Position numbers and translations under genes: made by a program. From the IMG/VR virus record IMGVR_UViG_3300045988_182687, positions 71,005 through 135,004 of that record: DNA of 64,000 nt. One strand, given 5' to 3'. The notes under the pieces are model-generated. The model saw only the letters and a list, made by a program, of their open reading frames with translations, did not search any database and was not told where the DNA came from. The DNA is from a virus. Shown in pieces: positions 12,458 through 64,000 of the stretch (position 1 is the first letter of the stretch; every line of letters begins with the position of its first letter).

Positions 12458-12650
12458 TGAAAAAGAAACTTCTTGAAAATTTGCGAGTCCGGATGTGTTG
12501 ACAATATGCTTGAATATGCTACCATGAAAACATGGAGGGCAATCCGCCTCCTTACATTATTCGTTTTGAGTTGGCAATAATAAGAAACGGATAAATATAA
12601 GAAGGCTGGTTTTCTCTAAATAATTTCATTGAAAGGAGACAAAAAATACC

Positions 12651-15600: not shown

Positions 15601-18317
15601 TCGAGGTCATCAATCGCGGCACATTCGCCATCACCAAGTTCATCTCCGACGGAACCTCCGGTCCCGCTAAGTTCGAGGGCGGTGCAGAGTTCAAGTATTG
15701 GCTGCAGTCCGCCGGCTCTTACGAGAACGCTAAGGATGACGAGCGCGGTATCCTGACGACCAACGACTTGGGCTACAGCGGCAAGTCCATCGAGCTGCCC
15801 TACGGCACCTATGTGGTGCATCAGACCAAGTCCGGCGATAAGGGTGCGGGGCTCGCGCCTGAGTTCACCGTTCTGGTCGGCGAGGTTGACCACGACCATC
15901 ACGACTTGGCTGTCAACAACGGACCTATTACCGCGTACCTGCGCGTTGTGAAGGTCGATGAGCTTGACGGCGAGGTTATTCCTTGGGGCGGCGCGAAGTT
16001 CCAGATTTACGACCCTGACGGGAACAAGGTGTCCCAGAAGGTCACTTACCCCACGGTAACTTATATTGATACATTCGAGACCAATGATGAGGGTTATTTT
16101 GTGACCCCGCTGGTTCTGCCTTACGGCGAGAACTATCATCTGGTCGAAATCGTACCCCCGAAGGGTTATGAGCTGATGGATACCCCGATTACCTTCAGCG
16201 TTACGCCCGATACCATTTCTCTGGATGCCGAGACCGGTCTGGTGACTGTGAATATCATCGCCGAGGACGAGGCGGTGACTCCCAAGGTCAAGACTACTGC
16301 AACCGACAAGGAAGGCAACAAGGAAATCGTTCCGTCCACCACCGTCACTATCGTCGATAAGGTGGAATGCACCGACGTTATCCCCAACAAGACCTATACG
16401 GTCGAGGGATATCTGGTGGTTAAGTCCACCGGCGAGCCTCTGCTGGACGCCGAGGGTAATCGCATTACCGCCTCTAAGACCTTCAAGGCTGAGGCCGACT
16501 TCACTGGCTTTGTGGAGCTGGAGTTCACCTTTGATGCGTCTCTGCTGGGTGGCGAGTCCATCGTTGTTTTCGAGGACCTGAAGCGCGGAAACCGTGTCGT
16601 TGCTACCCATGCCGACATCAACGATGTTGACCAGACCGTTGTAATCCTGAACCCCAAGATTGGCACCATGGCCAAGAACGTTGTTGGCGGCAAGGAGTTC
16701 ATGCCTCTGGCTGATGTGATTCTGGTGGATACCATCTCCTACGAGAATATGCCCGTGGGTAAGGAGTTCATCGCTATCGGTACGCTGATGGATAAGGCCA
16801 CCGGCAAGCCCGTTACCGATGCCAACGGCGACCCCGTTACCTCTTACAAGGTGTTCACTCCCGAAGCTGCCACTGGTACGGTGGATGTGAAGTTCGTCTT
16901 TGACGCTTCCAAGCTGGCCGGCAAGTCTCTGGTGGTATTCGAGCGTGTGTATCTGGGCAACGAGATTGTTCCCGGCGACTCCAATAAACCCGTGTTTGTG
17001 AGTCACGAGGATATCAACGATGAGGGGCAGACCGTCACCATCGGCGTTCCCGAAATCGGTACAAAGGCCGTGAACAACGCCACCAACGGCAAGACCCTCG
17101 ACCCCGAAGCCCGCGCTGAAATCAAGGATACCGTGTCCTATAAGGGCCTGATTGCTGGCGAGAAGTACACTGTCTCCGGTAAGCTGATGAACAAGGCCAC
17201 CAACGAGCCCCTGAAGGATAAGGACGGAAAGGAAATTACCTCCTCCGTTACTTTCACCGCTGAGGCGTCCAATGGCACCGTTGACGTGTTCTTCGTGCTC
17301 GATGCATCTCTGCTGCGTGGCCAGTCTATCGTTGTATTCGAGTCCCTGCAGTACAAGGACATTGAAATCGCAGTTCATGCCGACATCAACGATGTTGACC
17401 AGACCGTGACCGTCAACAGCCCTGAAATCAAGACCACCGCTAAGAACGCGGCTGATGGCAAGAAGGAATTCTGGGCCTACAGCAAGGTCGAGTTGGTCGA
17501 TACCGTGTCCTATAAGGGCCTGATTGCCGGCAATAAGTACACCGTAATCGGTAAGCTGATGGACAAGGCGACAGGTGAGCCTGTTCTGGGCCGCAACAAC
17601 AAGGAAATCACCGCCACTACCGAGTTCGAGGCCAAATCCTCTGACGGCACTGTGGATGTGAGTTTCGTGTTTGATGCATCCATTCTGGGCGGTAAGACGC
17701 TGGTCGTGTTCGAGACCCTGACCCGCAATGGCACTACGGTCGCGACTCACGCCGACATCAACGATGTTGACCAGACTGTGACCATCAAGCGCATCCCGAC
17801 CTATTCCGGTCCGAGCATTTCCACCACCGCTACCTTCGATGGCAAGGAGAAGAAGAACTCTGTTGCTGGTAAGAACGTGAAAATCGTGGACACCGTCAAC
17901 TATACCGGCCTGACTGTGGGCAAGACCTACGTGCTGGTTGGTACGCTGATGGATAAGGATTCCGGTGTTGCCCTCAAGGACAATAAGGGTAATCTGGTAA
18001 CGGCTACCACGACCTTTACGCCCAAGTCCTCCAACGGGGCTGTGAATGTTACGTTCAAGTTCGACGCATCCAAGCTGAAGGACCATGCGCTCGTGGTGTT
18101 CGAGACTCTGTATGAGGGTCGTGCTGAGGCGGGTAATGTCATTGCTACCCACAACGACCTGATGGACGGTGCCCAGACGGTGTATTTCCGCGACAGTGTC
18201 CAGACTGGCGATGAGGGCATCGGCCTGTGGGCCATGCTGGGTACGTTCGGTGCCATTGCTTGCTGCGGCACTGCGGTGTTCATGTTCCGCCGCAAGAAGG
18301 AGTATGGCGCCGAGTAA
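12651..18317 (+). CDS. Second sortase-anchored adhesin of the thioester/isopeptide/ester-domain class: signal peptide, acidic linker, thioester-type domain, Cna B-type repeats, 5 ester-bond domains, SVQTG sorting signal
   Basis: GAAAGGAGA ribosome-binding site. Signal peptide MKHKKMRGVVAMLLTLVMMVGMLPTSVYA. Same YCIEP/TQEVIW thioester-type motifs as adhesin 1. VTKTSEDG-type repeats. Five H-A-D-I-N-D-V-D-Q-T-V type motifs. C-terminus is VQTGDEG + hydrophobic helix + RRKKEYGAE. Confidence 0.85.
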   Translation: MKHKKMRGVVAMLLTLVMMVGMLPTSVYASDADGGGDSVVLESVSDPAKVGKTGSGNGDLVYNATEDAKNPDDGKKSDSPVVEDDVKGGADKKDTSKESSSENEQPAPGEAKSEAGKDESVKSSVTEEGLQDPYAGENTPVNVSFLYGSAQNAPRAISAMRAPARASGTITTGDDMGYNSKWMAEFAPYSSAVVKYFNGQPAYCIEPHKGAPGAGTSVDASAYWGDQRVRLALAYGWGGADDSTLLWYAGNGTYAWCATQEVIWEIVGGYSDLSDLFVGPGHQYDPEVAEPIKAAHDYIWDMINQQAQIPSFAVGRPTQTYNDFELVWDGTSWSLTRTDTNRVLRNFDDFEFSLPGVSTFQSGNNLTITATPEAAKSMLNGIVSYPTEGNVIDPDSVNAYLLVAGGSKQDCVALNGTPDPVTAYVRAKVTKTTGDLNIAKTSEDGKVGGVSFTVTGPNGYSKTVTTGANGKIAITDLQPGTYTVTENTPDNYIPTQPQSVNIAIGDFKTVNFSNVLKKGAVKVTKTSEDGQIAGHTFRLSGTSAAGTAVNMTAVTDANGVATFNNVPVGNNYKLEEINTAAKYVVPAVQAGVVVEYNTSTPAQFENKLARGNLKITKTSEDGFVAGMTFRLTGTSISGAAVNETASTDENGVVMFREILIGNNYTVQEINTAERYVVPAVQSNVTVTLNNTTSLNFHNKLARGAVEVKKTSEDGKVAGITFRLSGTAINGETVDMTAVTNDAGVATFNNVLIGNNYSVEEMNTAAKYIVPAVTNGVKVTLDNTTPVNVYNKLKRGDLRVTKTSEDGMVEGITFRLHGTAISGDAVDLTATTNADGIAIFKDVLIGNNYTLEEVDTAVKYVIPAVQTGLVVEFQKVTDTAVTNVLKKWKVTVEKTDAETGNIPRGDGVFEGAVYGLYKGDELVKEYVIGSDGKFTTDEYICGYDYTIREIKAPTGYQIDEGVYHVGAEPENYRIEHNVAPQITSVEVINRGTFAITKFISDGTSGPAKFEGGAEFKYWLQSAGSYENAKDDERGILTTNDLGYSGKSIELPYGTYVVHQTKSGDKGAGLAPEFTVLVGEVDHDHHDLAVNNGPITAYLRVVKVDELDGEVIPWGGAKFQIYDPDGNKVSQKVTYPTVTYIDTFETNDEGYFVTPLVLPYGENYHLVEIVPPKGYELMDTPITFSVTPDTISLDAETGLVTVNIIAEDEAVTPKVKTTATDKEGNKEIVPSTTVTIVDKVECTDVIPNKTYTVEGYLVVKSTGEPLLDAEGNRITASKTFKAEADFTGFVELEFTFDASLLGGESIVVFEDLKRGNRVVATHADINDVDQTVVILNPKIGTMAKNVVGGKEFMPLADVILVDTISYENMPVGKEFIAIGTLMDKATGKPVTDANGDPVTSYKVFTPEAATGTVDVKFVFDASKLAGKSLVVFERVYLGNEIVPGDSNKPVFVSHEDINDEGQTVTIGVPEIGTKAVNNATNGKTLDPEARAEIKDTVSYKGLIAGEKYTVSGKLMNKATNEPLKDKDGKEITSSVTFTAEASNGTVDVFFVLDASLLRGQSIVVFESLQYKDIEIAVHADINDVDQTVTVNSPEIKTTAKNAADGKKEFWAYSKVELVDTVSYKGLIAGNKYTVIGKLMDKATGEPVLGRNNKEITATTEFEAKSSDGTVDVSFVFDASILGGKTLVVFETLTRNGTTVATHADINDVDQTVTIKRIPTYSGPSISTTATFDGKEKKNSVAGKNVKIVDTVNYTGLTVGKTYVLVGTLMDKDSGVALKDNKGNLVTATTTFTPKSSNGAVNVTFKFDASKLKDHALVVFETLYEGRAEAGNVIATHNDLMDGAQTVYFRDSVQTGDEGIGLWAMLGTFGAIACCGTAVFMFRRKKEYGAE
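13131..13692. repeat. Copy B of the duplicated thioester-domain coding segment (pairs with 45-605)
   Basis: See 45-605. 13258-13637 appear identical to 171-549. Confidence 0.8.
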
Positions 18318-22472: not shown

Positions 22473-24788
22473 TTGGGAGCTTTTAACACCTGCTGTGAAA
22501 GGTCGTGTTTCCACATTAAACTAATACTTGCTGAGAAAAAACAGCTTGGCGATTTGATTGCTCAAGCTATCCCCGGCACGGCACGTTCTGACCGTGGAGC
22601 GACCGTAAAGGGCGATTACGTCATCGTGTGTTCACAGGGACACCTTTTGTCTTTGAAAGAACCTGAGGATTACGATGCCGCTCTTGGTAAGTGGGATTTG
22701 TCTGCACTACCCATTTACTTCCCTAACTGGCAGACCAAAATCAAAGAATACAATGGCAGGGGAGTGAACCCCAATGAGCGCGTTGCCCGCATCGGCGAGC
22801 TGCTGAAACAGTGTAGCTGTGTTATCCATGCCGGCGACCCTGATGAAGAGGGGCAGCTCCTTATTGATGAACTGCTTCGCTGGCATCACTATCGTGGGCC
22901 TGTCTACCGTCTGGCGACAGGTGACACATCTATTCCGGCGTTGCGGCGTGCGCTCAATAATCTTAAAGACAACCGTTCCTTTGAGAACATGGGCTGGTCA
23001 GCCTATGCCCGCAGCGTTGCGGACCTGATGGTTGGCGTTAATATGAGCCGGTATTATTCGCTGGTCAACAATGCTTCGTTGACAGTTGGACGTGTGCAGT
23101 CTCCTACCCTTGGGCTTGTGGTTGAGCGTGATATGCTTATCGAAAACCACGTAAAAACAAAATACTATGAGGTCTCAGCGAAGACTTCTGTTGAGGGTAA
23201 GGTCGTTGAGACGAAGTACAGGCCGAAGAAAGATGACCCTCATCTGACTGATGGGCTTATCTTGGAAAGACCTTACGCGGAGAGCAAGTCTGCGATGATT
23301 TCCGGAAAACAGTTCTCTGGGGCTGCCGTTACAAAAAAGATTTCCAAAGAACAACCGCCTTTGCCGTTTGATATGCTGGAATTGCAGGGCTACTGTTTGA
23401 AGAGTTTCGGCTACAAGCTGGACGACACCATGGAAATCACGCAGTCTTTACGCGATAACTACAACGCCATTACATATAACCGTACTCAGGTGCGATATCT
23501 CCCCGAAAACTACTTTGCGGAAGCTCCCGCCACCTCCCGTACCGTTATCGCAAACATAAACACGGTAGGAAAGGGCAATTTCAACCCTATTCTTGGTATG
23601 GACTTCAAGACGAAGGGGCGGTGCTTCGACGATTCTAAAATTGAAGCCCATTTTGGCATCATTCCTCAAAATGTGAGTCTCGACCTCAACAAGATGACAG
23701 AGCGGGAACGAAACGTATATCTTGCCATTTGTAAGTATTATCTTATCCAGTTCTTTCCGCCCGCTGAGAAGGAAACAACAAGGCTGGTCGTCCCGCTGCC
23801 GGACGGCGCCACTTTAGAGGCATCCAGCACTGGTGTTCTGAAACCCGGTTATCTCGTGATGATGCGCGAAGGTGTAGATACGCCCACTGCGTTGAGTATG
23901 ATACCCGCCGGCAGTTACGATGCCTTTGTTTCCGACGCTCAGGTCTTAGAGAAGGAAACAAATCCCCCTCCTCGTTATACACAGTACACGCTGGCGAAGG
24001 ATATGAGCCGTATTGCCAAGTATGTTACCGACCCATTCATCAAGAGCACTCTGCTGAAGAAAGATGCCGACGTGGAGGAGAATAACGGGGCTATCGGCAC
24101 CAGCGCAACACGGGACCAGATAATCTCCGGTCTCATTTCAAGAGGGTTCTTGCAGGAAAAGGGGAAGTCCCTTATTTCCACTCCACTTGGACGCGAGCTG
24201 TATCGCATTCTCCCCGATTCCCTTCGTGGACCGGACCTCACCGCCTTGTGGTGGGTCATCCAAGAGGAGATACATGAGGGGAAGGCGACGCCGGAGAAGC
24301 TGGAACAAAACGTTCTGGCTATGCTCAAAGATTTCCTGCAGCAACCGCATCCTAAAGTGGACCCCAATATTGTCCCGACAAGGAAGGGATTCACGCCGAT
24401 AGGAGTGTGTCCTCGCTGTGGTGGGAACATCATAGAGGGGAAAATGGGCTTTGGTTGTTCCAACTGGAGGAATGGATGTAAGTTTACCATCTGGAAAAAG
24501 CCAAAACCGACCCTGTTCCAGCACATCACATTCACAGAGAAGGATGTTAAAAACTTCCTCGCCGGAAAGCCTGTCCATAAGACGAAGCTGACCAAGAAGG
24601 ACGGCGGTACATTTGCGGCAGACCTTGTGATGGATGACAGTCAGCGCAGTGATTGGGGCCCGAACTTTACACTTCAGTTCAACAGCACCAAACCCGCAGG
24701 AGCCTCCTCGCGCTCTGGTGGTGGTCGTTCCGGTAGTCGCAGTACGTCGCGTGGTTCTTCGCGGAGTCGGCGCTCTGGACATCGGTGA
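22473..24788 (+). CDS. topB: Type IA DNA topoisomerase (topoisomerase III-like) with C-terminal zinc ribbon and Ser/Arg-rich tail
   Basis: TOPRIM 'KLILAEK', 'AGDPDEEGQ', 'GRVQSPTL' and C-terminal CPRCGG...C zinc ribbon. Start uncertain: the TTG at 22473 has no ribosome-binding site, and the homology-consistent ILAEK start would be an ATT near 22515. Confidence 0.85.
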   Translation: MGAFNTCCERSCFHIKLILAEKKQLGDLIAQAIPGTARSDRGATVKGDYVIVCSQGHLLSLKEPEDYDAALGKWDLSALPIYFPNWQTKIKEYNGRGVNPNERVARIGELLKQCSCVIHAGDPDEEGQLLIDELLRWHHYRGPVYRLATGDTSIPALRRALNNLKDNRSFENMGWSAYARSVADLMVGVNMSRYYSLVNNASLTVGRVQSPTLGLVVERDMLIENHVKTKYYEVSAKTSVEGKVVETKYRPKKDDPHLTDGLILERPYAESKSAMISGKQFSGAAVTKKISKEQPPLPFDMLELQGYCLKSFGYKLDDTMEITQSLRDNYNAITYNRTQVRYLPENYFAEAPATSRTVIANINTVGKGNFNPILGMDFKTKGRCFDDSKIEAHFGIIPQNVSLDLNKMTERERNVYLAICKYYLIQFFPPAEKETTRLVVPLPDGATLEASSTGVLKPGYLVMMREGVDTPTALSMIPAGSYDAFVSDAQVLEKETNPPPRYTQYTLAKDMSRIAKYVTDPFIKSTLLKKDADVEENNGAIGTSATRDQIISGLISRGFLQEKGKSLISTPLGRELYRILPDSLRGPDLTALWWVIQEEIHEGKATPEKLEQNVLAMLKDFLQQPHPKVDPNIVPTRKGFTPIGVCPRCGGNIIEGKMGFGCSNWRNGCKFTIWKKPKPTLFQHITFTEKDVKNFLAGKPVHKTKLTKKDGGTFAADLVMDDSQRSDWGPNFTLQFNSTKPAGASSRSGGGRSGSRSTSRGSSRSRRSGHR

Positions 24789-33209: not shown

Positions 33210-33297
33210 GGAGAGGTGGCCGAGCGGTTGAAGGCACCGGTCTTGAAAACCGGCGATGCGAAAGCATCCGTGGGTTCGAATCCCACTCTCTCCGCCA
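33210..33297 (+). tRNA. tRNA-Ser (anticodon UGA)
   Basis: Cloverleaf: ggagagg acceptor, long variable arm gatgcgaaagcatc, T-arm gtggg/ttcgaat/cccac, anticodon loop cuUGAaa, encoded CCA. Confidence 0.8.
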
Positions 33298-33310
33298 AAA
33301 GTAAAAAATA

Positions 33311-33381
33311 AGTACGGACGGTATAACCGGAATTAACGCCTGTGGAGATGCATGGTCATCGTGGAAGCAGGAATACTCTGT
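33311..33381. repeat. Orphan copy 1 of a roughly 70-nt element (agtacggacggtataaccggaattaacgcctgtggagatgcatggtcatcgtggaagcaggaatactctgt)
   Basis: Near-identical to 63930-64000 (3' flank of the TnpB-like gene). Partial copy at 33678-33745. Confidence 0.75.
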
Positions 33382-33455
33382 TAGCTGGTCATTCATGTGA
33401 GAGATGATGTCAGCACTTTTAGGGAACTGAATATGCCTGTGTCGGGTGTATGAAA

Positions 33456-33604
33456 CCCTGAAAAAGCAGGGGTGTATACCATCAACGCAGTCCCATTAGA
33501 GTGCCGGAGAGGTATATAAAGCCCCGAAATAGCAGGGTTGTATACCATGTTGACTACAGGAATCACAGTATACAGGGCCTTAAAACAATAGGGTTATATA
33601 CCAC
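33456..33604. repeat. Three direct repeats of about 27 bp (ccYYRaaaWagcagggKtRtataccaY) spaced about 56-66 bp apart
   Basis: R1 33456-33482, R2 33522-33548, R3 33578-33604. Located between tRNA-Ser and the downstream accessory cluster. Confidence 0.6.
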
Positions 33605-33649: not shown

Positions 33650-33745
33650 AAAGTGTGCAATGATTGCATACTTAAAAAGTACGGATGGTATAACCGGAAT
33701 TAACGCCTGTGGAGACGAACTCCGTCGCTAAAGCAGGAACTTGCC
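33650..33745. repeat. Orphan copy 2: palindromic hairpin (gtgtgcaa tga ttgcatac) plus the 5' half of the 70-nt element, 3' half diverged
   Basis: Matches 63887-63965 (hairpin + agtacggaYggtataRccggaattaacgcctgtggaga). Only 'aagcaggaa' is retained downstream. Confidence 0.65.
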
Positions 33746-33866
33746 ATGAGCTGAATTCTGCGTGAGAGGCGGTGCAACGCCGAGGTGGGAGTACCTTGGG
33801 GGAACATTAGCAAGCGCACAAAAATCAAAAATCGGTGGAATGGCATGGAAGGCAGGTGACTTGTAA

Positions 33867-55807: not shown

Positions 55808-56015
55808 AGATTCTTGTCTCCTTTCCTTCAGAATTGGTTACACACGACGGAATGCCGAAAAAAGACAGAACCGCTTTAAGCGGCTCTGTCTCCATGCAGT
55901 CGATATGACACTGTTTGTTTTCGTAGGGTGCCTCGACAAATTTTTCGCCAACCTCAATGGGTTCGTGGCAAATGCAGCATTCGCCGGCGTAACGAATTTT
56001 CTTTTTTGCTTTCAC
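55800..56015 (-). CDS. Small zinc-finger protein (CCICH...C), candidate cognate antitoxin/partner of the MazF-like gene
   Basis: GTG start after AAAGGAG. 8-nt overlap with the MazF-like start. Confidence 0.35.
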   Translation of the reverse strand: MKAKKKIRYAGECCICHEPIEVGEKFVEAPYENKQCHIDCMETEPLKAVLSFFGIPSCVTNSEGKETRIYG

Positions 56016-56036
56016 AATGAATTTACTCCTTTCTTT

Positions 56037-56240
56037 TCAAAGTTGCCGAGACAGTGTTACGGCTGCCTGCTGGCGTCGTCTTTCGCAGTTTCTTCGCTGC
56101 ACTTCGATAGCTTCGCGAGCCTCCGCAATACACTGCTTCGCACGCCTATCCTGTTCAGAAGAGAAAGATGCGTAGCGCTCAGAGTAGACGGAATCCATAC
56201 GCTCGGCTCTCTCAATTAACTCATACAGCGGTGTAGACAT
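56037..56240 (-). CDS. Hypothetical small protein (67 aa)
   Basis: GAGGAGGAG ribosome-binding site. Confidence 0.4.
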   Translation of the reverse strand: MSTPLYELIERAERMDSVYSERYASFSSEQDRRAKQCIAEAREAIEVQRRNCERRRQQAAVTLSRQL

Positions 56241-56256
56241 AGCTTCTCCTCCTCGT

Positions 56257-56529
56257 TTATTGAATGTTCATGCCTACGGCGCGAGGACCTTCTTTGGACC
56301 AAGTTTCCTTGAGCCAGTGATAGGTGATTGTGCTATCTTCGGGACTCTTGTCTGGGTAGCAGGGAAGGTATGCTGCGGAGTACAAGTCTCTGCACTGACT
56401 GAAGTACACATGATTCCAGTCAGCCCACACATCACCAAGAGAACGGATAGCTCGCTTGAACGACCGAAAGCTCTGTGGCGTGTGAACTACGATGGCATTT
56501 GCTCCGTTCCACTTTCCATTCCACATCAT
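56257..56529 (-). CDS. Hypothetical small protein (90 aa)
   Basis: GGGAGGTG ribosome-binding site. Confidence 0.4.
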   Translation of the reverse strand: MMWNGKWNGANAIVVHTPQSFRSFKRAIRSLGDVWADWNHVYFSQCRDLYSAAYLPCYPDKSPEDSTITYHWLKETWSKEGPRAVGMNIQ

Positions 56530-56795
56530 TGCACTTCACCTCCCTGATACGTCGGGCGGCTGCGTCTGTTACGGAACGGAGGCATCACCGGTGCGGTGTA
56601 GCTGGTCAGCTCACCCGTCATTTTGACAGGCACACACTGGAGCAATCCGCGCTGTTTTCGATACTGGTGAGCCAAGTTGTTGCGAGCCTGTTTCTCAGAA
56701 ACCGCCATAGTCGTCCCGCCCCACTTATTTGTGGTAATGTCGTCATAGACACGAACGGGTCCGAGATAGCTGAAAACCATTTTTGCCTGTGCCAT
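56526..56795 (-). CDS. Hypothetical small protein (89 aa)
   Basis: AAAGGAG ribosome-binding site. First gene after cassette D. Confidence 0.45.
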   Translation of the reverse strand: MAQAKMVFSYLGPVRVYDDITTNKWGGTTMAVSEKQARNNLAHQYRKQRGLLQCVPVKMTGELTSYTAPVMPPFRNRRSRPTYQGGEVQ

Positions 56796-56837
56796 TATGT
56801 TTTCTCCTTTCTTATTGTGTTGTAATGTAAAAAAATA

Positions 56838-56938
56838 TATAAAAAGACAGCTATCCCTGTCTTGGGATAACTGTCTTGAATACTTGGTGTGACTGGAAGC
56901 GGAGATAAGTCTCCTTATAAAAATATCTTCGTAATTAT
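56838..56938 (-). ncRNA. Cassette D leader RNA (about 100 nt) with intrinsic terminator
   Basis: -35 TTGACA (56967-72), 16 bp, TGgTAGTAT (56945-53). Terminator stem gacagctatccc/gggataactgtc plus U-tract at 56838-56878. Stem sequence differs from cassettes A-C but pairing is kept. Confidence 0.5.
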
Positions 56939-56982
56939 ACTATTATACTACCACAATTATTTATAATGTCAACAATGGCAGA

Positions 56983-57018
56983 GAAAAAAGAGGCGGCTTT
57001 CGCCTGCCTCTTTTTTTA
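56983..57018. terminator. Intrinsic terminator downstream of the 57016-58188 gene (gaggcggc/gcctgcctc)
   Basis: A-run, stem, T7. Confidence 0.6.
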
Positions 57019-58188
57019 CCTTATTTCCTCGGAGTATTGTGCCATCCAGCAGTCGCAAAGGGCTTCCGCTACGACCTCACTTCTATCGTTATCGTCAGAA
57101 ATCATCAGGATTGAAGAAAGGGCTGACCGCATACCTTCATCGAGCGTAAACTCCCTCTCGTTTCCACTTTTATCTGGGACATTTGTTCGAGCAAGCAGCG
57201 TCGAATATTTCGTATAATCGGGGGAAATGAAATAGTCCACAGCCGTGTCGAGTCCAATACTCAGCATCATAAGATTGCCGGTCGTTCCCATTGGTTCTTT
57301 CTTTCCGGACTTCTTCTCCGGTCTCATAAGAGTTCCGTTCTTGTCAAAGAATATTGCCCTATCTGACTTTTCAAATGTGTCTACAGGAACGCTAAAGCAT
57401 CTGATTGCCATGTTCTTAAAAGGAGCACTGGCGTCTTCGCCGAACAGTGAGGAAGCATTACAGCAGTCATTTTCCATCTTCTCGTTAAGCCGCTTTATAT
57501 AAAGCTCCTGAAAATCAATGGGAGCACCTGCGCTGTCCGCGTATACGTAGTTTTCTGGCTTTTTGCCGTCTGCCGTTTCCCTTACCATGTACTGCTCGTA
57601 CTGCTTGCACATTTCTTTAATCTTAACTTGTATCCGCAAGGAATCGGAAAACGGAACTGCTGAGATTTGGGAGAAAAGGGAGGAGTAGTTGTGAGGGAGG
57701 TGGATGGGCGCACACTCATCTCCGAATAAGACTTTTTCGCAGGACTTGTCAAGGAAAAAGTATGAGGTTTTGTAAAGACCTTCAACAGACGCATAAAACC
57801 CTTCAGGCAGCCGTCGCGTCTGCTTGCCGTCTGCTGGAGGCGAAATGCGTAACTCAAACGGGCCCACAGAGGTAAGCGCACCGTCCTCAGGCTCCTTGAG
57901 GCGCGACATTTTAGTTGCGTCCATGCCGATTTCTGCGCCAATTTGCTTCACATTCCATTCTCCATAGACACGTGGCATTTTGGTAATGGCAAACAGCTCT
58001 TCGTACACTCTCGCGGAAACAAGCCTGCGTACCAAAGTGAGCTCATCGCTGAATTCGGCATATATTCCGAGCATTTCCTTGTAATTCAATTTTTCCGACT
58101 TCTCGGCGGAAGAGAACCGCGTATTGAGTTTTGTCGCCCATTTATTGCAGTCGATATATGCGTTGACTGCACTATCCTTTTTTCTCAT
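57016..58188 (-). CDS. Hypothetical protein (390 aa)
   Basis: AAGGAGG ribosome-binding site. Confidence 0.55.
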   Translation of the reverse strand: MRKKDSAVNAYIDCNKWATKLNTRFSSAEKSEKLNYKEMLGIYAEFSDELTLVRRLVSARVYEELFAITKMPRVYGEWNVKQIGAEIGMDATKMSRLKEPEDGALTSVGPFELRISPPADGKQTRRLPEGFYASVEGLYKTSYFFLDKSCEKVLFGDECAPIHLPHNYSSLFSQISAVPFSDSLRIQVKIKEMCKQYEQYMVRETADGKKPENYVYADSAGAPIDFQELYIKRLNEKMENDCCNASSLFGEDASAPFKNMAIRCFSVPVDTFEKSDRAIFFDKNGTLMRPEKKSGKKEPMGTTGNLMMLSIGLDTAVDYFISPDYTKYSTLLARTNVPDKSGNEREFTLDEGMRSALSSILMISDDNDRSEVVAEALCDCWMAQYSEEIR

Positions 58189-59153
58189 TTGTTTTCCTCC
58201 TTAAAGTGTTCAAGTCTTTCGGAAAACTTTTGCAGCGCTTTTCTAAACTCAATTTTGCAGGTGGTTGACATGAAATAATAGGCGGAAACAATATCTTCTG
58301 TCGTAGAGTTTTTCGCATAAAGTCGCATTGTGCTTGGCATCCCCATGAGCCAGTGTAAAGAGACGCCAAAGGCAGCCGCTATATGCGGCAGAATTCTTTC
58401 GTTGCTTGTGGAGCAGGAGGGTCTCACCAACATGATATTCGCCAACTCGTGAATGACATCCTTTTGTTTATCATCTAATTCAAAATTGCCTTTTCCGGAC
58501 TGAATCAATTCATCCAAATCGAGAATATCCTGTCGCTTAAATGAACATCTGTGGGAAAAAACGTACTGTACTCGCGCAGAAGGGCGCAGCAATAAGCTGC
58601 GTTTTTTATCATCCCAGAATTGATGTATCCACATCGTATCAATCATGCCGAGAGCTGACTCTCTTATGCATCCGTCTCTTATCGTTTCTGGAAAGCTATC
58701 TACAAGATTATAGACTTCTTGAACATCTGGCGGTAGGCTGCTGAAAGCTGGAAAGTTTTTATCTCCGAATCGAATCATTTCCTCGTAAGATATGTCCAAC
58801 TCGGCAAGAATCCGAAAAACGATTTGCCAGTTAAATCCCTGCCAGCCTATAAATCGCTGTGTTTCTCCGTTTGTAACGGGAGTTTTATCAAATAAAAGGG
58901 CTGGCAGCTTTTCTTCTGGACAATTAAGCTGTTCGGCTAACCGCAGCTTTTTCATTTCTGCCCTGTATGGCGTGGTGTCTGTGATAATGTTGTTTACTCT
59001 TGCCATGTTGCCTGCATCCTCCGCAATTCTTAATTTGCGGAGGAGCAGGACTATAGAGGTATAGACAGTTGTTGAGACGTTTTCTCCGTACCTTATATCG
59101 TCTCCAGCTCGTGCCGGCTTTGTAGGATTTGTTCTTTTATAAATAGCACTCAT
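58185..59153 (-). CDS. Hypothetical protein (322 aa) with a possible degenerate ImmA/IrrE-like segment
   Basis: 'VIHELANIM' is HEL-x-N rather than a canonical HExxH. Low confidence on function. Confidence 0.45.
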   Translation of the reverse strand: MSAIYKRTNPTKPARAGDDIRYGENVSTTVYTSIVLLLRKLRIAEDAGNMARVNNIITDTTPYRAEMKKLRLAEQLNCPEEKLPALLFDKTPVTNGETQRFIGWQGFNWQIVFRILAELDISYEEMIRFGDKNFPAFSSLPPDVQEVYNLVDSFPETIRDGCIRESALGMIDTMWIHQFWDDKKRSLLLRPSARVQYVFSHRCSFKRQDILDLDELIQSGKGNFELDDKQKDVIHELANIMLVRPSCSTSNERILPHIAAAFGVSLHWLMGMPSTMRLYAKNSTTEDIVSAYYFMSTTCKIEFRKALQKFSERLEHFKEENK

Positions 59154-61225
59154 TTTCTTGATGCCTCCTTTGCGGTATTGTCGGTCTCCTGACCTCCCGC
59201 GATTATGGAATCGACCATTTTGCAGGAACCTTTTCCTCTGTTCAAAAGTGTCTTTGCGTCCTCCTTTGCCTGTTCGTACTCAGCGGGGTATGCCATCATA
59301 AGGGTCATATATCGGTTCCATCCGGATTGTTCTGTGCCGAGGAAATCTCCGGCACCTCTAATGCGGAGGTCCGCCTCTGCAATTTCAAACCCGTTATTGG
59401 TCTGTACCATGGCGTTCAGTCTCTCCATCGCAGCCGGCGTGGGCGACGCGCCTGCTTCCAGCACACAATAGGACTGTACGCTGCTCCGCCCTACACGCCC
59501 TCTCAACTGGTGCAGACTGGAAAGCCCGAAACGGTCCGCGTTTACAATGACCATCATTGTCGCGGTAGGGACATTTACGCCAACCTCCACAACGGTTGTA
59601 CTGACAAGCACATCTACTTGACCATCCTTGAATCGCGAGAGAATGTCCTCCGTTTCTGTCTTTCCCATCTTGCCTGTTACTGTTTCGATGCGGACGCCAT
59701 ACGGCTCCAGAACAGAACGGTATTCTGCGCTGACCTCCTCGACAGACTGTACGCCTTCCAGTTTTTCGCTTCTATCAATAAGCGGACAGACAACATAGGT
59801 TTGATACCCCTTTTGTTTCTGCAGCAGAATGAAGCGAAAGATTTTTTCTTTACTTGTGGCAATACCGGTAATAACTGGAAGACGTCCGTCCGGCATCGTT
59901 TTAATGGTGTGGAGCTGCACGGTATCCCCATAAATTACCTGAGCCAGACTGCGGGGGATGGGGGTGGCAGACATAGTAATAGAATGAACACCGCCTGAAG
60001 CCTTTTCGATGAGCGCTGTACGCTGGTCAACGCCAAACTTGTGTTCCTCATCCGTTACGGTTAAGGCGAGATTTTTATACTCCACATCTTCTCCAATGAT
60101 GGACTGTGTTCCAACAATGAGTTGCGCCTTGCCTTCCTTGATGACGGCCAAGGCTTTTTTCTTTTCGCTCGTCTTCAAATCGCTGCCAAGCCAAACGACG
60201 CTTACGCCAAACGGTTCCGCCAGAGCGGAGAGGTCCTCGTAGTGCTGACGCGCCAACACCAGCGTGGGAGCCATCACCGCTGCCTGATACCCATTCTCGG
60301 CCATAGTCATCATAAGGCAGAATGCAACGATACTCTTTCCACAACCGACATCGCCCTGCACAAGCGCGTTGATGCGGTGCCCGTCTGCTGCAAATTGAGT
60401 CATGCTCTCAATCGCGTCCATCTGGTCTTTTGTGAGAGAATAGGGCAGGGTATTCTTAATCTTTTCAATCCAGCCGTTTGTCTTGACGGAGAATTGGCTA
60501 CCCTTAGAAATCTTTCGTGCGGCCCATTCGTTAGCCATAGCAAAATATACGAGGTCTTCCTGAAGGAGTCGGGTTTGACCGTCCTTAATATCCTGCTCGG
60601 TAACGGGGAAGTGCAGCTTCTTGAGTGAAGTCCAAAGGCTTGAAAGACCCTTTTTGTCGAGGTAATCATTGGGAAGCGTTTCAATAAGCCCGATAGTTCT
60701 GTCGGAAGCCTCCTGAATCTTTTCTCTCAGGTAGGCATCGCTCACGCCTCCGATTTGAGCGTACACAGGACGAATGCCCGGTGCCTGCCCATAGGCAGGC
60801 TCGAAAATCTCCGGTGCCGTCATGGTGTAGTTGTTGTATTTCTCGCTGTATCCGACCTTTCCGGCCACATAAACCTCCTGCCCTGTGCAAGTGGAAATCT
60901 TGCGGAAGAGGTAGTTTTGCCGGAACCATGTAATAACGAGTTTTTCTCCGCTTGGAAGCACAGTGCAGTGTGCGATAATCATAGGGACATGGGAGGAAGT
61001 CTGCACATAAGAACCCTTATAGCGCAGTTCTTGGCCGAAGGACTTTACTTCGTCTACACGCACAAGACAAGCCTGCTCCGCACCATCTATGAGATGCGTT
61101 GCAAGCTGCCGGTAGTCCTTATAGCTTTTTGGGATATAACGCAGAAGGTCTTCTGCTGAGTGGATACCTTTTTTCTCGAAACGCTTTTCTTTTTGTGCGT
61201 TTACTCCAATGACGGATAGCTTCAT
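59150..61225 (-). CDS. recG: ATP-dependent DNA helicase RecG
   Basis: GGAGGTGAG ribosome-binding site before ATG (MKLSVIG). Walker A 'GDVGCGKS', 'DEEHKFGV' (DEQHRFGV-type), helicase C motifs 'QLRGRVGR'. N-terminal wedge domain. Confidence 0.85.
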   Translation of the reverse strand: MKLSVIGVNAQKEKRFEKKGIHSAEDLLRYIPKSYKDYRQLATHLIDGAEQACLVRVDEVKSFGQELRYKGSYVQTSSHVPMIIAHCTVLPSGEKLVITWFRQNYLFRKISTCTGQEVYVAGKVGYSEKYNNYTMTAPEIFEPAYGQAPGIRPVYAQIGGVSDAYLREKIQEASDRTIGLIETLPNDYLDKKGLSSLWTSLKKLHFPVTEQDIKDGQTRLLQEDLVYFAMANEWAARKISKGSQFSVKTNGWIEKIKNTLPYSLTKDQMDAIESMTQFAADGHRINALVQGDVGCGKSIVAFCLMMTMAENGYQAAVMAPTLVLARQHYEDLSALAEPFGVSVVWLGSDLKTSEKKKALAVIKEGKAQLIVGTQSIIGEDVEYKNLALTVTDEEHKFGVDQRTALIEKASGGVHSITMSATPIPRSLAQVIYGDTVQLHTIKTMPDGRLPVITGIATSKEKIFRFILLQKQKGYQTYVVCPLIDRSEKLEGVQSVEEVSAEYRSVLEPYGVRIETVTGKMGKTETEDILSRFKDGQVDVLVSTTVVEVGVNVPTATMMVIVNADRFGLSSLHQLRGRVGRSSVQSYCVLEAGASPTPAAMERLNAMVQTNNGFEIAEADLRIRGAGDFLGTEQSGWNRYMTLMMAYPAEYEQAKEDAKTLLNRGKGSCKMVDSIIAGGQETDNTAKEASRK

Positions 61226-61539
61226 ATATATTCTCACCTCCGTTTGGTGGGAAAAATGTCAGGGTGTCGGGGTGCTTTTCGTGAACTACTCGGCAATAAA
61301 TCACCGAGGCTTCTTGCTTACTTCTTATAAAGAGGGCTTACACACCCTTATTATAAACACGAACATAAAATTTTGTCAAGCGTATTAGAGAGAAAATTTA
61401 CGGGATGTCAACCCCTGTTCTTTTGTATATTCGTTATTATTGCCAACTACTTTTCGTGAAATACAGCTTGCTTTAGTTTGTGCAGAACGCTTCATGGCGT
61501 ATAAACTCGCGGTATAGCTTTTTTTACTGATAATTAGAC

Positions 61540-61568
61540 TTGACATTTTTATATGTTCGTGTTAGTAT
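61540..61568 (+). promoter_or_regulatory. sigma-A promoter P4 with extended -10 (TTGACA-17-TGtTAGTAT)
   Basis: agaCTTGACATTTTTATATGTTCGTGtTAGTAT. Same family as P1, P2 and P3. Confidence 0.6.
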
Positions 61569-61574
61569 AACAGC

Positions 61575-61690
61575 GTGGACGGGGCAAGAAAGGCTCGTTC
61601 GAAGGGCTTGTACCTAAAATGACAATATTCTTGCGATTGTAAGAATAAGCGCCTAAGTTGCCCGTCCCGTTTTCTTCTTTCTTTATTTAC
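61575..61690 (+). ncRNA. Candidate small RNA / structured leader transcribed from P4, ending at a terminator-like hairpin
   Basis: Long-range stem gacggggcaag...cttgcccgtc (61578-61666) enclosing the inner hairpin attcttgcgattgtaagaat, followed by ccgTTTTCTTCTTTCTTTATTT. Confidence 0.35.
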
Positions 61691-61750
61691 ACTCATAAGC
61701 ACAATAAAGTCAGCTCCCTGAGGGAAGTGTGCGGGAGCTGCTTCGACTTT

Positions 61751-61804
61751 CGCGTTGTTCTCTATGCGGGGAGGTTCTGGCGGTTCGAGTCCGCACGACG
61801 CGCC
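61751..61804 (+). other. tRNA-like remnant (acceptor-stem + T-arm-like 'GGTTCGAGTCC' minihelix), too short for a full tRNA
   Basis: cgcgttg...ggcggTTCGAGTccgca cgacgcg c. Acceptor pairing is possible but only 21 nt separate the acceptor 5' strand from the T-arm. Confidence 0.3.
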
Positions 61805-61878
61805 TTCTGTTTTCGCTGCTTCTATCTTTGCCTCCGTCTTTTTTAACGAGCAGCGGACACAGAAACATCTCTCAATAT

Positions 61879-61957
61879 GATAGCGTAGCATAACTGGTAA
61901 TGCCGTACCTCTCTCACAGGTAACGATATGTTGGTTCAACTCCAGCCGCTATTGCCA
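61879..61957 (+). tRNA. Atypical tRNA-like gene (possible anticodon CUC) or tRNA pseudogene
   Basis: gatagcg acceptor pairs with cgctatt. D-arm gcat/aactggta/atgc. Anticodon arm tacct/cuCUCac/aggta. T-arm gttgg/ttcaact/ccagc. GCCA 3' end. Extra nucleotide between D and anticodon arms and a 7-nt variable loop. Confidence 0.4.
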
Positions 61958-62063
61958 GCCGGCGTTCTACCCACCCCGCCGACATCAACTCTCTTCGGCG
62001 CTGGCGGCCTCCGTGCAGACGGGATTACACGTGATAAGCGGAGGCTGCCAGCACCACCAAAAT

Positions 62064-62139
62064 GCTGGTGTAGCTCAGTAGGCAGAGCGGCGCACTCGTA
62101 ACGCGCAGGTCGTGGGTTCGACCCCCACCGTCAGCTCCA
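62064..62139 (+). tRNA. tRNA-Thr (anticodon CGU)
   Basis: gctggtg acceptor (2 G-U pairs). D-arm tagctcagtaggcagagc. Anticodon loop cuCGUaa. T-arm gtggg/ttcgacc/cccac. Encoded CCA. Confidence 0.75.
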
Positions 62140-62231
62140 TTCCATACTCATTCTCCTTCAAGTGAAGCCCCCGTGTAACAGGTCTTTTGAAAAGTGCTTT
62201 CAGCCTCGTTGTGCGGGGGCTTCACGACTAT

Positions 62232-62307
62232 GCTGATGTAGCTCAGTTGGCAGAGCGGCGGATTTGTAAACCGCAGGTCGGGGGTTCAAGGCCCTCCATC
62301 AGCTCCA
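62232..62307 (+). tRNA. tRNA-Thr (anticodon UGU)
   Basis: gctgatg/catcagc acceptor. D-arm tagctcagttggcagagc. Anticodon loop uuUGUaa. T-arm ggggg/ttcaagg/ccctc. Encoded CCA. Confidence 0.75.
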
Positions 62308-62342
62308 TTAAAACCATGTGCTTTTGTGGTGTTTTTATATGC

Positions 62343-62419
62343 GCGGATGTCGTCTAATTTGGTGAGACACCAGCCTTCCAAGCTGGTCATTGCGGGTTCG
62401 AGTCCCGTCGTCCGCTCCA
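62343..62419 (+). tRNA. tRNA-Gly (anticodon UCC)
   Basis: gcggatg/cgtccgc acceptor. Anticodon stem-loop ccagc-cuUCCaa-gctgg. T-arm gcggg/ttcgagt/cccgt. Encoded CCA. Confidence 0.8.
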
Positions 62420-62450
62420 AGGACACCGTAAAGTGTGTCCTTCTTCTTTA
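62419..62450 (+). terminator. Intrinsic terminator after the tRNA cluster
   Basis: ggacac/gtgtcc stem plus ttcttcttt. Confidence 0.6.
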
Positions 62451-62805
62451 TCTGCTTGTTTGTCCTGTGTTTTTCGGACAACATCGGCGAGCGCAAAAGT
62501 CGCCTGAAGCGTGAGAAGCGAGCTGCCTGTACCTGTTTTGCGGGCGGTGGCGTGATAAGGGTGAAACTCTGCGCTTTCAGTAGCCGAAAGCAGATGAGCA
62601 AAAGTCTCCGCGAACGCCTGCATGGTTCGCGGGACAAGGGAAGCCGGAAAAATAAGTAAACGCGGGCCGAGCGCAGAGGTTGTTGGCGTATTCCAGACGT
62701 GGGTGCTGCCTTTTATGCTGTGCTTGTTTGCGTGGGGTCCGGTGTTCTCGCAGTCTGGATGGTTGCTGCGAGAGGTGCCGACTATTTGCGAAAGGACGGA
62801 TTTCT

Positions 62806-63864
62806 ATGCCAACTACATTTCAAGCGTTTAAGTATCGCATTTACCCGACTGATGAGCAGGTCGAAATCATCGAGAAGACTTTCAAATGCTGCCGGTTTGT
62901 GTGGAACCATTTCCTTGAACAAACCTCCAAAATCTATGAGCGCCGACAGGAGAAGATGACGACCTTCGACTGTATGAAGGTTCTCACGGAGATGCGGGAG
63001 CGCTGGCCTTGGCTTGCGGACTGCGGCTGTACGGCAGAGAGATATGCCATCATTGATTTGTTTGAGGCGCGAAAAGCGTTCTTCCGCCGCATTAAAGCGG
63101 GGGAGAAGCCCGGTTATCCCAAATTTAAGGGCGCGTCCCATCCGACCCAGAGTTTTACGACCGCTGGTACTATCTATGTGACGGACGATTACATTCAAGT
63201 TCCGTTTGGAGGGCAGTATCAGAAAATCAACAAGCTCAGGCGAGGGACGGGGCGCCCCATCGAAGGGTCTCCCCGCGAGGTCACTATTTCTCGGTCTGCT
63301 ACCGGAAAATACTGGGCATCTGTCTGCTGTAAAGTAGAGCGAGACACGCTGCCTATTGTGGACGGCGAAGTGGGCATCAGTCTCGGCCTGAAGGAGTTGG
63401 CTATTGACAGCAACGGCGTTCACTATGAGAACCCGAAGCATCTGAGCAAGTCTGCAAAGCGGCTGGCCCGTGAGCAGCGGCGTCTATCCCGTAAGAAAAA
63501 AGGCTCTGCCAACTACGAGAAGCAGCGGCGCAAGGTAGCCGGCGTCCATGAGCATATTGCCAATCAGCGCAATGACTACCGGCATAAAATCAGCCGTGAA
63601 CTTGTCAACGCAAACCAGCTTATTGCCGTTGAGAAGGTGGCCGTTAAGCCCTTAGTTGAGGGCAATGAGCAGGCTAAAAGCATCCTCGATGCCGGCTGGT
63701 CTGAACTTACCGGTATGATAAAGTATAAGGCGGACTGGGCTGGACGCACGCTGGTGGATGTAGATACCGCCACCGTAGCACCGGAAGCAAAGCATGACGA
63801 GGCGCTGGCACAGGTCGTGCTGTCCGAAGGTCAGCGCATAGCCTCCGAGCAGAAGCCCGCCTAA
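62806..63864 (+). CDS. tnpB: Standalone TnpB-like protein (IS200/IS605 OrfB family), C-terminally truncated with RuvC-I Asp replaced by Ser; candidate nuclease-dead TnpB derivative (TldR-like)
   Basis: AAAGGA ribosome-binding site 9 nt before ATG (MPTTFQAFKYRIYPTDEQ, the hallmark TnpB N-terminus). 'VGISLGLKELAIDSNG' aligns to the RuvC-I motif (GIDLG) with S in place of the catalytic D. RuvC-II Glu is retained ('IAVEKV'). The ORF stops about 20 aa after the 'LDAGWSEL...YKADWAGRTLVDVD' block, so no zinc finger or RuvC-III. No tnpA nearby. Confidence 0.7.
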   Translation: MPTTFQAFKYRIYPTDEQVEIIEKTFKCCRFVWNHFLEQTSKIYERRQEKMTTFDCMKVLTEMRERWPWLADCGCTAERYAIIDLFEARKAFFRRIKAGEKPGYPKFKGASHPTQSFTTAGTIYVTDDYIQVPFGGQYQKINKLRRGTGRPIEGSPREVTISRSATGKYWASVCCKVERDTLPIVDGEVGISLGLKELAIDSNGVHYENPKHLSKSAKRLAREQRRLSRKKKGSANYEKQRRKVAGVHEHIANQRNDYRHKISRELVNANQLIAVEKVAVKPLVEGNEQAKSILDAGWSELTGMIKYKADWAGRTLVDVDTATVAPEAKHDEALAQVVLSEGQRIASEQKPA

Positions 63865-63886
63865 AGTGCCCTATACCAAGTAAATA

Positions 63887-64000
63887 AAGTGTGCAATGAT
63901 TGCACACATTGCCAAGGAAATAAAAAACGAGTACGGACGGTATAGCCGGAATTAACGCCTGTGGAGATGCATGGTCGTCGTGGAAGCAGGAATACTCTGT
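63887..64000 (+). mobile_element. IS200/IS605 right-end-like / candidate guide-RNA scaffold region downstream of the TnpB-like gene: palindromic hairpin gtgtgcaatgattgcacac plus the conserved 70-nt element (runs to the window end)
   Basis: Hairpin at 63889-63907. 63930-64000 is near-identical to 33311-33381. Hairpin plus the first half also occur at 33650-33745. Confidence 0.6.

Follow-up and report, generated by a model that had tools for sequence, protein, structure and literature searches.

The 64,000-nucleotide (nt) stretch analysed here, positions 71,005 to 135,004 of the IMG/VR virus record IMGVR_UViG_3300045988_182687 (hereafter the window, to which positions refer unless another contig is named), encodes a derivative of TnpB, designated dTnpB, that is probably the DNA-binding, non-cutting effector of a minimal type V, TranC-like CRISPR system used between mobile elements. 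The protein has lost one catalytic residue and its zinc finger, its gene is immobile and under strong purifying selection, and the omegaRNA-derived scaffold that follows the gene recurs along the element, where complete copies lead into short arrays with changing spacers, some of them matching other mobile elements. A preliminary description, made from the letters of the window, had proposed a TldR-like RNA-guided regulator with a guide next to each scaffold copy. Its picture of a domesticated, immobile and probably non-cutting TnpB with a retained scaffold holds, and an RNA-guided, non-cutting role in DNA binding is still the best reading of the sequence, but the single fixed guide gives way to arrays, one of which (33445-33602) had been missed. 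The whole resembles a CRISPR-like silencing system of very recent origin.

A TnpB derivative with a broken catalytic triad

The dTnpB gene and its flanks are arranged as follows.

62780-62805, + strand: apparent remnant of an ancestral insertion sequence (IS) left end (GACTATT...), judged without statistics by its resemblance to the left end of an active sister IS, GACTATTCCACC...
62806-63864, + strand: dTnpB open reading frame (ORF), a TnpB derivative of 352 amino acids (aa)
63889-63907, + strand: perfect palindrome GTGTGCAATGATTGCACAC, after the dTnpB stop codon
63929-64000, + strand: scaffold module A (88 bits), covering model positions 1-72 of 130 up to the point where the window stops

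Assignment of the ORF to the TnpB family, as first proposed, is confirmed by Pfam (HTH_OrfB_IS605, 3.9e-18; OrfB_IS605, 2.4e-25) and by NCBIfam, where guided_TnpB reaches 255.8 bits (cut-off 100) and IS200_TnpB is covered at profile positions 2-311 of 360 with 306 bits, below its cut-off of 425. The Pfam family Cas12f1-like_TNB stays sub-threshold (18.4 bits; cut-off 26.3). An AlphaFold2 model (predicted local distance difference test 88; predicted template-modelling score 0.78) has ISDra2 TnpB (8exa) as its best Foldseek match, with template-modelling (TM) scores of 0.84/0.87, while LaTranC (TM 0.68) and dCas12f (TM 0.60) match more weakly. The protein therefore has the OrfB and HTH families and the fold of a TnpB; the intact RuvC D-E-D triad and the C-terminal zinc-finger/TNB module are not found in it.

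Alignments with ISDra2 TnpB, then with 14 and then with 69 homologues (70 sequences including dTnpB) show that RuvC-I reads GISLG instead of GxDxG (D192S), as had been noticed before. Column 192 holds Asp in 64 sequences, Ser in four and Arg in two, the Ser being restricted to dTnpB and its three close homologues, and the RuvC-II Glu (E276) is kept in an invariant column. The CxxC...CxxC zinc finger is indeed absent; it was lost through an internal deletion of about 28 residues and not, as supposed, by a simple C-terminal truncation that also removed the RuvC-III Asp. This residue (D331) is present because the C-terminal KHDEALAQVVLSEGQRIA aligns to DRDENAAKNILTEGLRML of the homologues, within a motif that has changed from RDxNAAxNI to the degenerate HDEALAQVV. 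The triad, whose integrity would have spoken against the earlier proposal, is broken by D192S with E276 and D331 kept. Both D192S and the deletion are conserved in homologues at 98%, 87% and 79% identity, and full-length relatives that have kept the whole triad reach at most 50-56% identity. The D191A exchange abolishes cleavage by ISDra2 TnpB, and judging from the alignments D192S together with the zinc-finger loss would abolish cleavage by dTnpB.

The locus is conserved and does not move. Against the P0002 gene (87% protein and 80% nucleotide identity) the ratio of nonsynonymous to synonymous substitution rates (dN/dS) is 0.069 over 352 codons and about 0.1 in the degenerate C-terminal tail, and the index lists the exact dTnpB protein for 82 sample blocks. 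All contigs read have the gene as a single copy between constant flanks, the tRNA cluster and RecG-like helicase gene on one side and a 189-aa gene on the other; the bounded ends, variable sites and multiple copies of a mobile IS are not seen. No transposase family was found among the approximately 39 window ORFs scanned with Pfam (ten ORFs were scanned with NCBIfam and PHROGs; the scans covered ORFs from about 130 aa upwards), in agreement with the reported lack of a tnpA partner. Such a conserved, apparently RuvC-inactivating change, often with loss of the zinc finger or RuvC C-terminus, in an immobilised gene without TnpA and with conserved non-transposon neighbours, is what is found in TldRs. 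The left ends compared with the remnant at 62780-62805 are those of the sister IS, of the P0011 type, in L042 and L036. The hairpin reported 3' of the ORF corresponds to the perfect palindrome, which in the P0002-type locus (L008) lies between an A-run and a T-run in the manner of a bidirectional terminator, GAAAAGTGTGCAATGATTGCACACTTTTC.

Other variants of the gene were also found. P0003 (L007 6001-7047) is a dTnpB allele of 348 aa and 79% identity, almost identical to the active P0011/P0023-type TnpB in its N-terminal half and identical to dTnpB in its C-terminal half; this mosaic suggests recombination between the dead gene and a live IS. A second, independent lineage of dead TnpBs comprises P0022 (L188 362-1500) and also P0026. 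P0022 has 320 aa, a D to R exchange in RuvC-I and a true C-terminal truncation, and its stop codon carries a TTGACA-17-TATAAT promoter, followed by a short scaffold starting AATACGG. No array was seen after the P0022/P0026-type scaffold in the 330 nt of sequence read, and by its layout this lineage looks like a classical single-guide TldR.

A scaffold module derived from omegaRNA

The scaffold module, an omegaRNA-derived right end of about 130 nt, was modelled from stretches of IMG/VR contigs (52 in number) matched by the 21-mer CCGGAATTAACGCCTGTGGAG; 46 distinct scaffold copies gave a covariance model of 130 positions. By this model the window holds three copies, of which B and C accompany an array far upstream of dTnpB.

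33210-33297, + strand: tRNA-Ser(UGA) gene (ARAGORN), ending 12 nt before module B
33310-33438, + strand: module B, complete (covariance-model match 33310-33441, 152 bits), ending ...GGGAACTGAATATGCC
33445-33602, + strand: array B, three repeats (repeat matches of a hidden Markov model, HMM, and array parsing)
33445-33480, 33511-33546 and 33568-33602, + strand: repeats of array B
33481-33510 (30 nt) and 33547-33567 (21 nt), + strand: spacers of array B
33653-33671, + strand: second copy of the palindrome, GTGTGCAATGATTGCATAC, after the trailer of array B
33677-33801, + strand: module C, diverged, full-length, with no array after it (covariance model, 77 bits)

The 70-nt segment described earlier is thus real and occurs three times in the window, but it does not end at 64000 and 33381 and runs about 55 nt further. 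In full contigs module A continues for 55 nt and is then followed by an array (L001 11258-11354), so that the guide predicted just beyond 64000 is in fact scaffold. What had been read at 33650-33745 as the hairpin plus the first half of the segment is a full-length diverged module after the hairpin; its inferred end, ...GGGAGTACC at about 33795, keeps the terminal helix as GGTAT:GTACC. Module C is followed by conserved sequence up to a 132-aa gene at 33867, and the order array, C-type module, gene is repeated in L034. Since module B starts 12 nt past the tRNA-Ser gene, tRNA 3' processing could make the 5' end of a module/array transcript.

Several lines of evidence define the structure and the end of the module. 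In the 46 copies 98.6% of cells are paired, compared with 21-58% when the partners are slid, and almost every one-sided change produces a G-U pair, indicating an RNA of the module strand. The bases after ...GCAGGAAT, taken before as guides at 33382 and 33746, are near-invariant in these copies (ACTCTGTTGGCTGG) and form the base of an extension hairpin inside the scaffold, with a conserved GTGAGAG loop, a covarying upper stem and a closing CUCU:GGGG; in module B it reads GCTGG...CAGC around the same loop. Moreover, the module is homologous to the right ends of the active relatives P0005, P0010 and P0011 (for P0005, a close-relative search in IMG/VR gave one distant match only). In the P0011 IS the right end extends some 100 nt beyond GCAGGAAT, its last bases being ...GGTTGAATATCC; the homologous end of the type-1 module is ...GGGGAACTGAATA(TG)CC. 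A scaffold ending at ...GCAGGAAT with ACTCTGTTGGCTGGTT as its guide is ruled out by the hairpin conservation and the IS right end; ACTCTGTTGGCTGGTT has no other match in the window. The 11-mer AGCTGGTCATT, said to be shared with tRNA-Gly, does occur at 33383-33393 and in that gene, where it lies at 62381-62391 and not at 62385-62395. Placed in the variable stem of the extension hairpin, it is best taken as a coincidence.

The very last scaffold bases are joined to the 5' loop by a terminal helix of 4-6 bp, which occurs in seven covarying variants (GGTAT:ATACC, GGTATA:TATGCC, GGTAT:GTACC, GGCG:CGCC, GGATG:TATCC, GGGTA:TACCC and GGGGTA:TACCCC). This covariation fixes the scaffold end and therefore the position where a guide would start.

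The module recurs at 5-8 or more intergenic sites per element, and the 21-mer often appears 3-9 times per IMG/VR contig. Concern that the segment might be a generic intergenic repeat is justified as to the many intergenic sites but not as to their contexts: 24 of the 26 scaffold-bearing IMG/VR contigs also carry dTnpB (87-100% identity), with arrays always fused to the module. The extra copies, rightly thought to matter, head CRISPR arrays. Along the element the modules stand at the heads of successive gene clusters in the same orientation. A decayed module suspected by eye upstream of dTnpB (62610-62775) was rejected at a best covariance match of 2.7 bits with filters off, and Rfam searches (E up to 1) of 61500-64000 and of L001 10700-11500 returned tRNAs only.

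CRISPR arrays follow the modules

Each complete module is followed, after a gap of 7-8 nt, by a CRISPR array of 1-7 regular repeats with unique spacers of near-constant length. The 36-nt repeat has the consensus GGTATACACCACCCGGAAATAACAGGGTTGTATACC or GGTGTATGAKRCCCTGAAAYRACAGGGKTGTATACC, and 90 of the 121 unique spacers are exactly 30 nt long. Arrays were taken from IMG/VR and from a metagenome scan with the repeat alone as query, giving 224 with at least two repeats, of which 202 had enough upstream sequence to be evaluated. A full module lies upstream of 198 of these, a partial or variant one upstream of four, and no array is without a module; among the loci selected by the repeat alone the counts are 81 full, three partial and none lacking. 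Empty, scaffold-less units, as expected if an IS had merely inserted beside a pre-existing element, were looked for and none was found (100 of 100 with a module, later the 198 of 202). Some 200 nt separate the dTnpB stop codon from array A (L001 11059 to 11258), so that a single gene for a putative RuvC-fold effector stands next to an array, as in type V and TranC loci.

The arrays change, and they do so with polarity. L001 and L002 agree in every base of 2293 nt upstream and show 99.95% identity across 2000 nt downstream, while their sole spacer is entirely different. At the same locus in L042 and L051, and in L048 and L007, the module-proximal spacers differ and the trailer spacers are common, and near-identical elements hold between one and six repeats at one locus. 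Of 78 arrays, 18 begin with two identical repeats and none ends with such a pair; the mean HMM score falls from 32.5 for the first repeat to 26.6 for the last, terminal repeats being degenerate or truncated.

The repeat forms a hairpin in which G-U often takes the place of A-U, and its conserved half is the 3', spacer-proximal one. Its AUACC end is that of the type-1 scaffold, whereas the active sister IS ends in UAUCC, and in IMG/VR the repeat was found only on contigs of the dTnpB-bearing element family. An interpretation of the repeats as protein-binding iterons or operators is ruled out by the regular, unique 30-nt spacers, their turnover and the G-U pairs. No Cas1, Cas2, Cas4 or other Cas-type family was detected among the approximately 39 window ORFs scanned, of about 130 aa and above; adaptation genes (cas1/cas2) are absent from many V-F, V-U and TranC loci as well.

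Some spacers match other mobile elements

Matches to spacers were found in the window itself and in gut 'phage' records.

12487-12516, - strand: protospacer, 28/30 identical to a spacer of the sister element L010, with the 5' flank ...TTCAAG

This protospacer overlaps a TTGACA hexamer, possibly a -35 element, upstream of the gene for an 1888-aa adhesin (12651-18317). Four spacers from different arrays match a single xis-int region of record MT835962.1: one (27/30) just upstream of the xis-like gene, one (29/30) over its ribosome-binding site and ATG, one (29/30) at its 3' end and one (31/31) in the adjacent gene, which we read as the integrase gene; a fifth spacer matches the region weakly (23/30). 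In MT839899.1, a serine-recombinase gene holds a perfect match (29/29) to part of an irregular spacer. A G stands directly 5' of the protospacer in five of five cases, a number too small to establish a protospacer-adjacent motif (PAM) firmly. No spacer matched among plasmids, and the three module-proximal spacers searched against IMG/VR gave no protospacer. The targeted record itself has, a short way upstream of the xis-int genes, a scaffold variant resembling omegaRNA (L150, MT835962.1 247-3427, positions 1270-1345); rival elements therefore seem to share TnpB-derived RNAs.

Proposed mechanism and alternative explanations

If dTnpB is the effector, its guides would come from several short arrays, 5-8 or more per element, and not from a single constant sequence behind the gene. 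The terminal helix of the repeat, GGUAUAC:GUAUACC, may mimic the scaffold helix, in which the 5' loop GGUAU pairs with the guide-adjacent AUACC, and the conserved repeat half next to the spacer would reproduce the TnpB/Cas12 layout with the scaffold 5' and the guide 3'. Loaded with CRISPR RNA (crRNA), dTnpB would bind protospacers with a G immediately 5' in competing mobile elements and block transcription at xis, int and serine-recombinase genes and at an adhesin-promoter-like site. That dTnpB and no other protein loads the module and array RNAs, that its binding represses transcription and how the arrays are processed are parts of this scheme that we infer; new spacers are probably inserted in trans by host Cas1-Cas2. 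Such an effector would link TldR (dead, single guide, regulator) with TranC and type V systems (active, arrays, immunity): a probably non-cutting protein of 352 aa, programmed by several evolving arrays against rival elements, and a very small natural protein of the CRISPR-interference type with an apparently minimal, single-G PAM.

Several observations weigh against this proposal. The link between dTnpB and the arrays is drawn from adjacency, co-occurrence and scaffold homology, and contig 183715 has arrays with no dTnpB in the region read. Only a single catalytic residue is replaced; with E276 and D331 remaining, residual or altered nuclease activity is possible. About six of the 121 spacers were matched, and the PAM comes from five sites. 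The similarity between repeat and module is modest (5' half, 29 of 2000 shuffles; 3' half, not significant). A search for an anti-repeat, by which the module would act as trans-activating CRISPR RNA (tracrRNA), gave no signal (85 of 500 shuffles did as well), and it is therefore hard to see how a 36-nt repeat could replace a 130-nt scaffold. Several large ORFs of the window without annotation are possible effectors, and the junction of an active IS with a repeat in L208 (see below) raises the possibility that the arrays also serve, or are invaded by, active TnpBs.

The alternative that deserves most attention, although we hold it to be unlikely, is that the arrays are served by another effector, be it the CRISPR-Cas machinery of the host, some protein of the element that lacks annotation or an active P0011-type TnpB, while dTnpB binds modules in operon 5' leaders, acts as a decoy against TnpB homing or sequesters crRNA. 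It is well documented that viruses and plasmids carry mini-arrays which draw on the Cas proteins of the host (PMC11656645), and the missing adaptation genes, the lack of a clear anti-repeat, the active TnpB right end abutting a repeat in L208 and the position of the modules before co-oriented gene clusters would all agree with it. However, every array is fused to a module of dTnpB's own omegaRNA lineage, the repeat end fits the type-1 scaffold helix and not the helix of the active IS, the repeat is limited in IMG/VR to the dTnpB element family, and the active IS is polymorphic whereas dTnpB is constant and strongly selected. A quite different objection is that the protein is a nuclease after all, an active TranC-like effector that provides cutting immunity through Ser192 or a rearranged E276/D331 site. 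This appears improbable: every one of the 64 nuclease-type relatives in the alignment has the RuvC-I Asp, its replacement stops cleavage in ISDra2 TnpB, RuvC-III shows a decayed motif (R to H, N to A, A to L, N to V) and the whole zinc-finger/TNB module is deleted. It draws on the two of three catalytic residues that are kept, on rearranged RuvC sites known in TnpB and Cas12 lineages (PMC10691335) and on the existence of TnpB-sized active CRISPR effectors in TranC clades 3 and 9 (10.64898/2026.03.27.714800).

A classical TldR, with one fixed guide right after the scaffold (at 64001, and for the orphan copies at 33382 and 33746) and repression of a promoter on the chromosome or the element, would account for a dead TnpB with a retained scaffold, has a parallel in the separate P0022/P0026 lineage, which does look single-guide, and could apply to module C, which has no array and could carry a fixed guide. 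We give it very little weight, since the supposed guide bases after ...GCAGGAAT belong to the near-invariant stem of a covarying hairpin, the sister IS right end lies about 100 nt beyond them, the terminal helix covaries with that end and ACTCTGTTGGCTGGTT is unmatched elsewhere in the window. Hardly credible is a non-functional locus, that is, a decaying IS relic whose modules and repeats are right-end debris spread by recombination. Although IS200/IS605 ends do leave solo copies and the element carries an active sister IS, the dN/dS of 0.07, the 352-aa frame intact at 87% identity, the module structure kept by G-U and compensatory changes, the regular 30-nt spacers, the polarised turnover and the matches to other elements already contradict it.

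A more far-reaching scenario, which we regard as rather doubtful, is that dTnpB and its arrays represent a CRISPR system being born from transposon RNA, with the repeat arising from omegaRNA by internal deletion and spacers gained independently of Cas1. The repeat would have kept the 5' loop segment and the guide-adjacent end, now paired as the repeat hairpin; the unsplit omegaRNA would still stand at every array head, and the effector would be nuclease-dead while remaining 50-56% identical to active IS TnpBs. As spacers are gained in an element without Cas1-Cas2, their insertion might follow a non-Cas1 route, for instance guide capture linked to an IS or a recombinase, and not depend on a host integrase in trans.

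Comparison with known systems

By analogy, the dTnpB system would work like Cas12m or type IV, is built like TranC and seems derived like TldR, while corresponding fully to none of them. With TldRs it shares the IS200/IS605 TnpB origin, the RuvC lesion and loss of the zinc-finger region, immobility on a mobile element without TnpA, an omegaRNA-type scaffold and likely non-cutting binding (10.1101/2023.11.30.569447). The described TldRs have one fixed guide beside the gene and repress a specific host promoter (fliC, oppA) (10.1101/2023.11.30.569447). In contrast, no single adjacent guide that is fixed and matches a promoter was found here, the scaffold is multi-copy and heads arrays whose changing spacers are directed against mobile elements, and the RuvC-III Asp is present.

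The TranCs (LaTranC, PDB 9jfo; OsTranC3; CauTranC9; 10.64898/2026.03.27.714800) are likewise TnpB-sized or nearly so and fall phylogenetically among TnpBs. They have short arrays with 32-38-bp repeats related to the 3' part of a right-end RNA, lack linked Cas1 or Cas2, and come from Oscillospiraceae-type gut bacteria and phages. However, TranCs are active nucleases with split tracrRNA and crRNA (10.64898/2026.03.27.714800), whereas dTnpB has lost the RuvC-I Asp and the zinc finger, an unsplit scaffold stands before each array and each element has many arrays. In sequence and fold, dTnpB and LaTranC are also distant (phmmer E 3e-12 over 84 residues; TM 0.68).

Cas12m (V-M) and plasmid type IV systems are element-borne, without interference nuclease activity, have spacers against mobile elements and silence essential genes of competitors (PMC11656645), features that the dTnpB system would share. 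Cas12m is a Cas12 of about 600 aa by PDB chain lengths, unlike dTnpB with its 352 aa and its 50-56% identity to active IS TnpBs. The dCas12f-sigmaE or 'Sigma-TnpB' systems (PMC13472631; PMC10691335) have in common an inactivated miniature RuvC protein, omegaRNA-like arrays and integrative or mobilisable elements. They descend from Cas12f, are encoded next to a sigma factor and activate transcription (PMC13472631; PMC10691335); a small sigma-70-type gene does occur about 8 kb downstream of dTnpB, but it does not adjoin the gene, and dTnpB matches the dCas12f fold weakly (TM 0.60). By their description, V-U24, V-U43 and V-U44 (PMC10691335) are similar too: the proteins are small and TnpB-like, arrays lie downstream, adaptation genes are missing and RuvC-I is non-canonical.

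The active sister IS

An active IS of about 1.38 kb with a full-length TnpB of the P0011 type is found in the same elements (L042 7564-8942), where its presence, close upstream of the tRNA cluster, is polymorphic. The IS ends were mapped from an insertion/empty-site pair and two other insertions.

61773-61780, + strand: empty site of the P0011 IS, occupied in L042 and L025, which defines the IS ends

The target resembles a tRNA T-arm (GGTTCGAGTCC), with no ARAGORN call there. Its occupied allele in L042 has an unexplained 8-bp duplication, GGTTCTGG, unexpected for IS200/IS605. The target-adjacent motif of the sister IS could not be fixed: the left flanks end in G, but L042 carries this duplication. 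L208 (reverse strand, near position 823 in reverse-complement numbering) has a P0011-like active IS whose right end meets a CRISPR repeat precisely where spacer and repeat join, in an array that is intact in L021. The IS can therefore insert into arrays, and its guide at that site is the repeat sequence.

Element context and host

Apart from dTnpB, the products encoded in the window include giant adhesins, a protein of the topoisomerase III type (22473-24788), a RecG-like helicase and SPFH, PemK and non-specific endonuclease proteins. One giant ORF (8-10927) exceeds 3639 aa, and the 1888-aa adhesin holds five T-Q ester domains, seven SpaA domains and one thioester domain. Downstream of the window lie genes for DUF1064, a large serine recombinase, a small sigma factor and a protein read as J-domain-like from its HPD motif. 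These genes together indicate a large integrative or conjugative-type element, which IMG/VR lists as viral; the giant ORFs and the topoisomerase III-type protein fit a conjugative element better than a phage. A megablast of 56000-64000 against phages gave no match, and the ten ORFs compared with PHROGs gave no meaningful match, only a marginal one to a family of unknown function.

Among GTDB representative genomes no close dTnpB homologue was found (best 42-43% identity), so the host is only inferred, as gut Firmicutes. The best TnpB matches there are in Oscillospiraceae/Clostridiales-type genomes, including Pseudoflavonifractor, Oscillibacter and Dysosmobacter.

Further module-array units, in the opposite orientation, occur on IMG/VR contig 3300045988_183785 at about 105-121 kb (L050, L040), some 40-55 kb beyond the dTnpB locus, and belong either to one very large element or to two related ones. 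Downstream of the window, in L035 (4266-6695), the third module-array unit is followed by three tandem paralogous secreted proteins of 264, 266 and 257 aa, which we read as sortase-like from their CSYCGS and TLYTC-type motifs.

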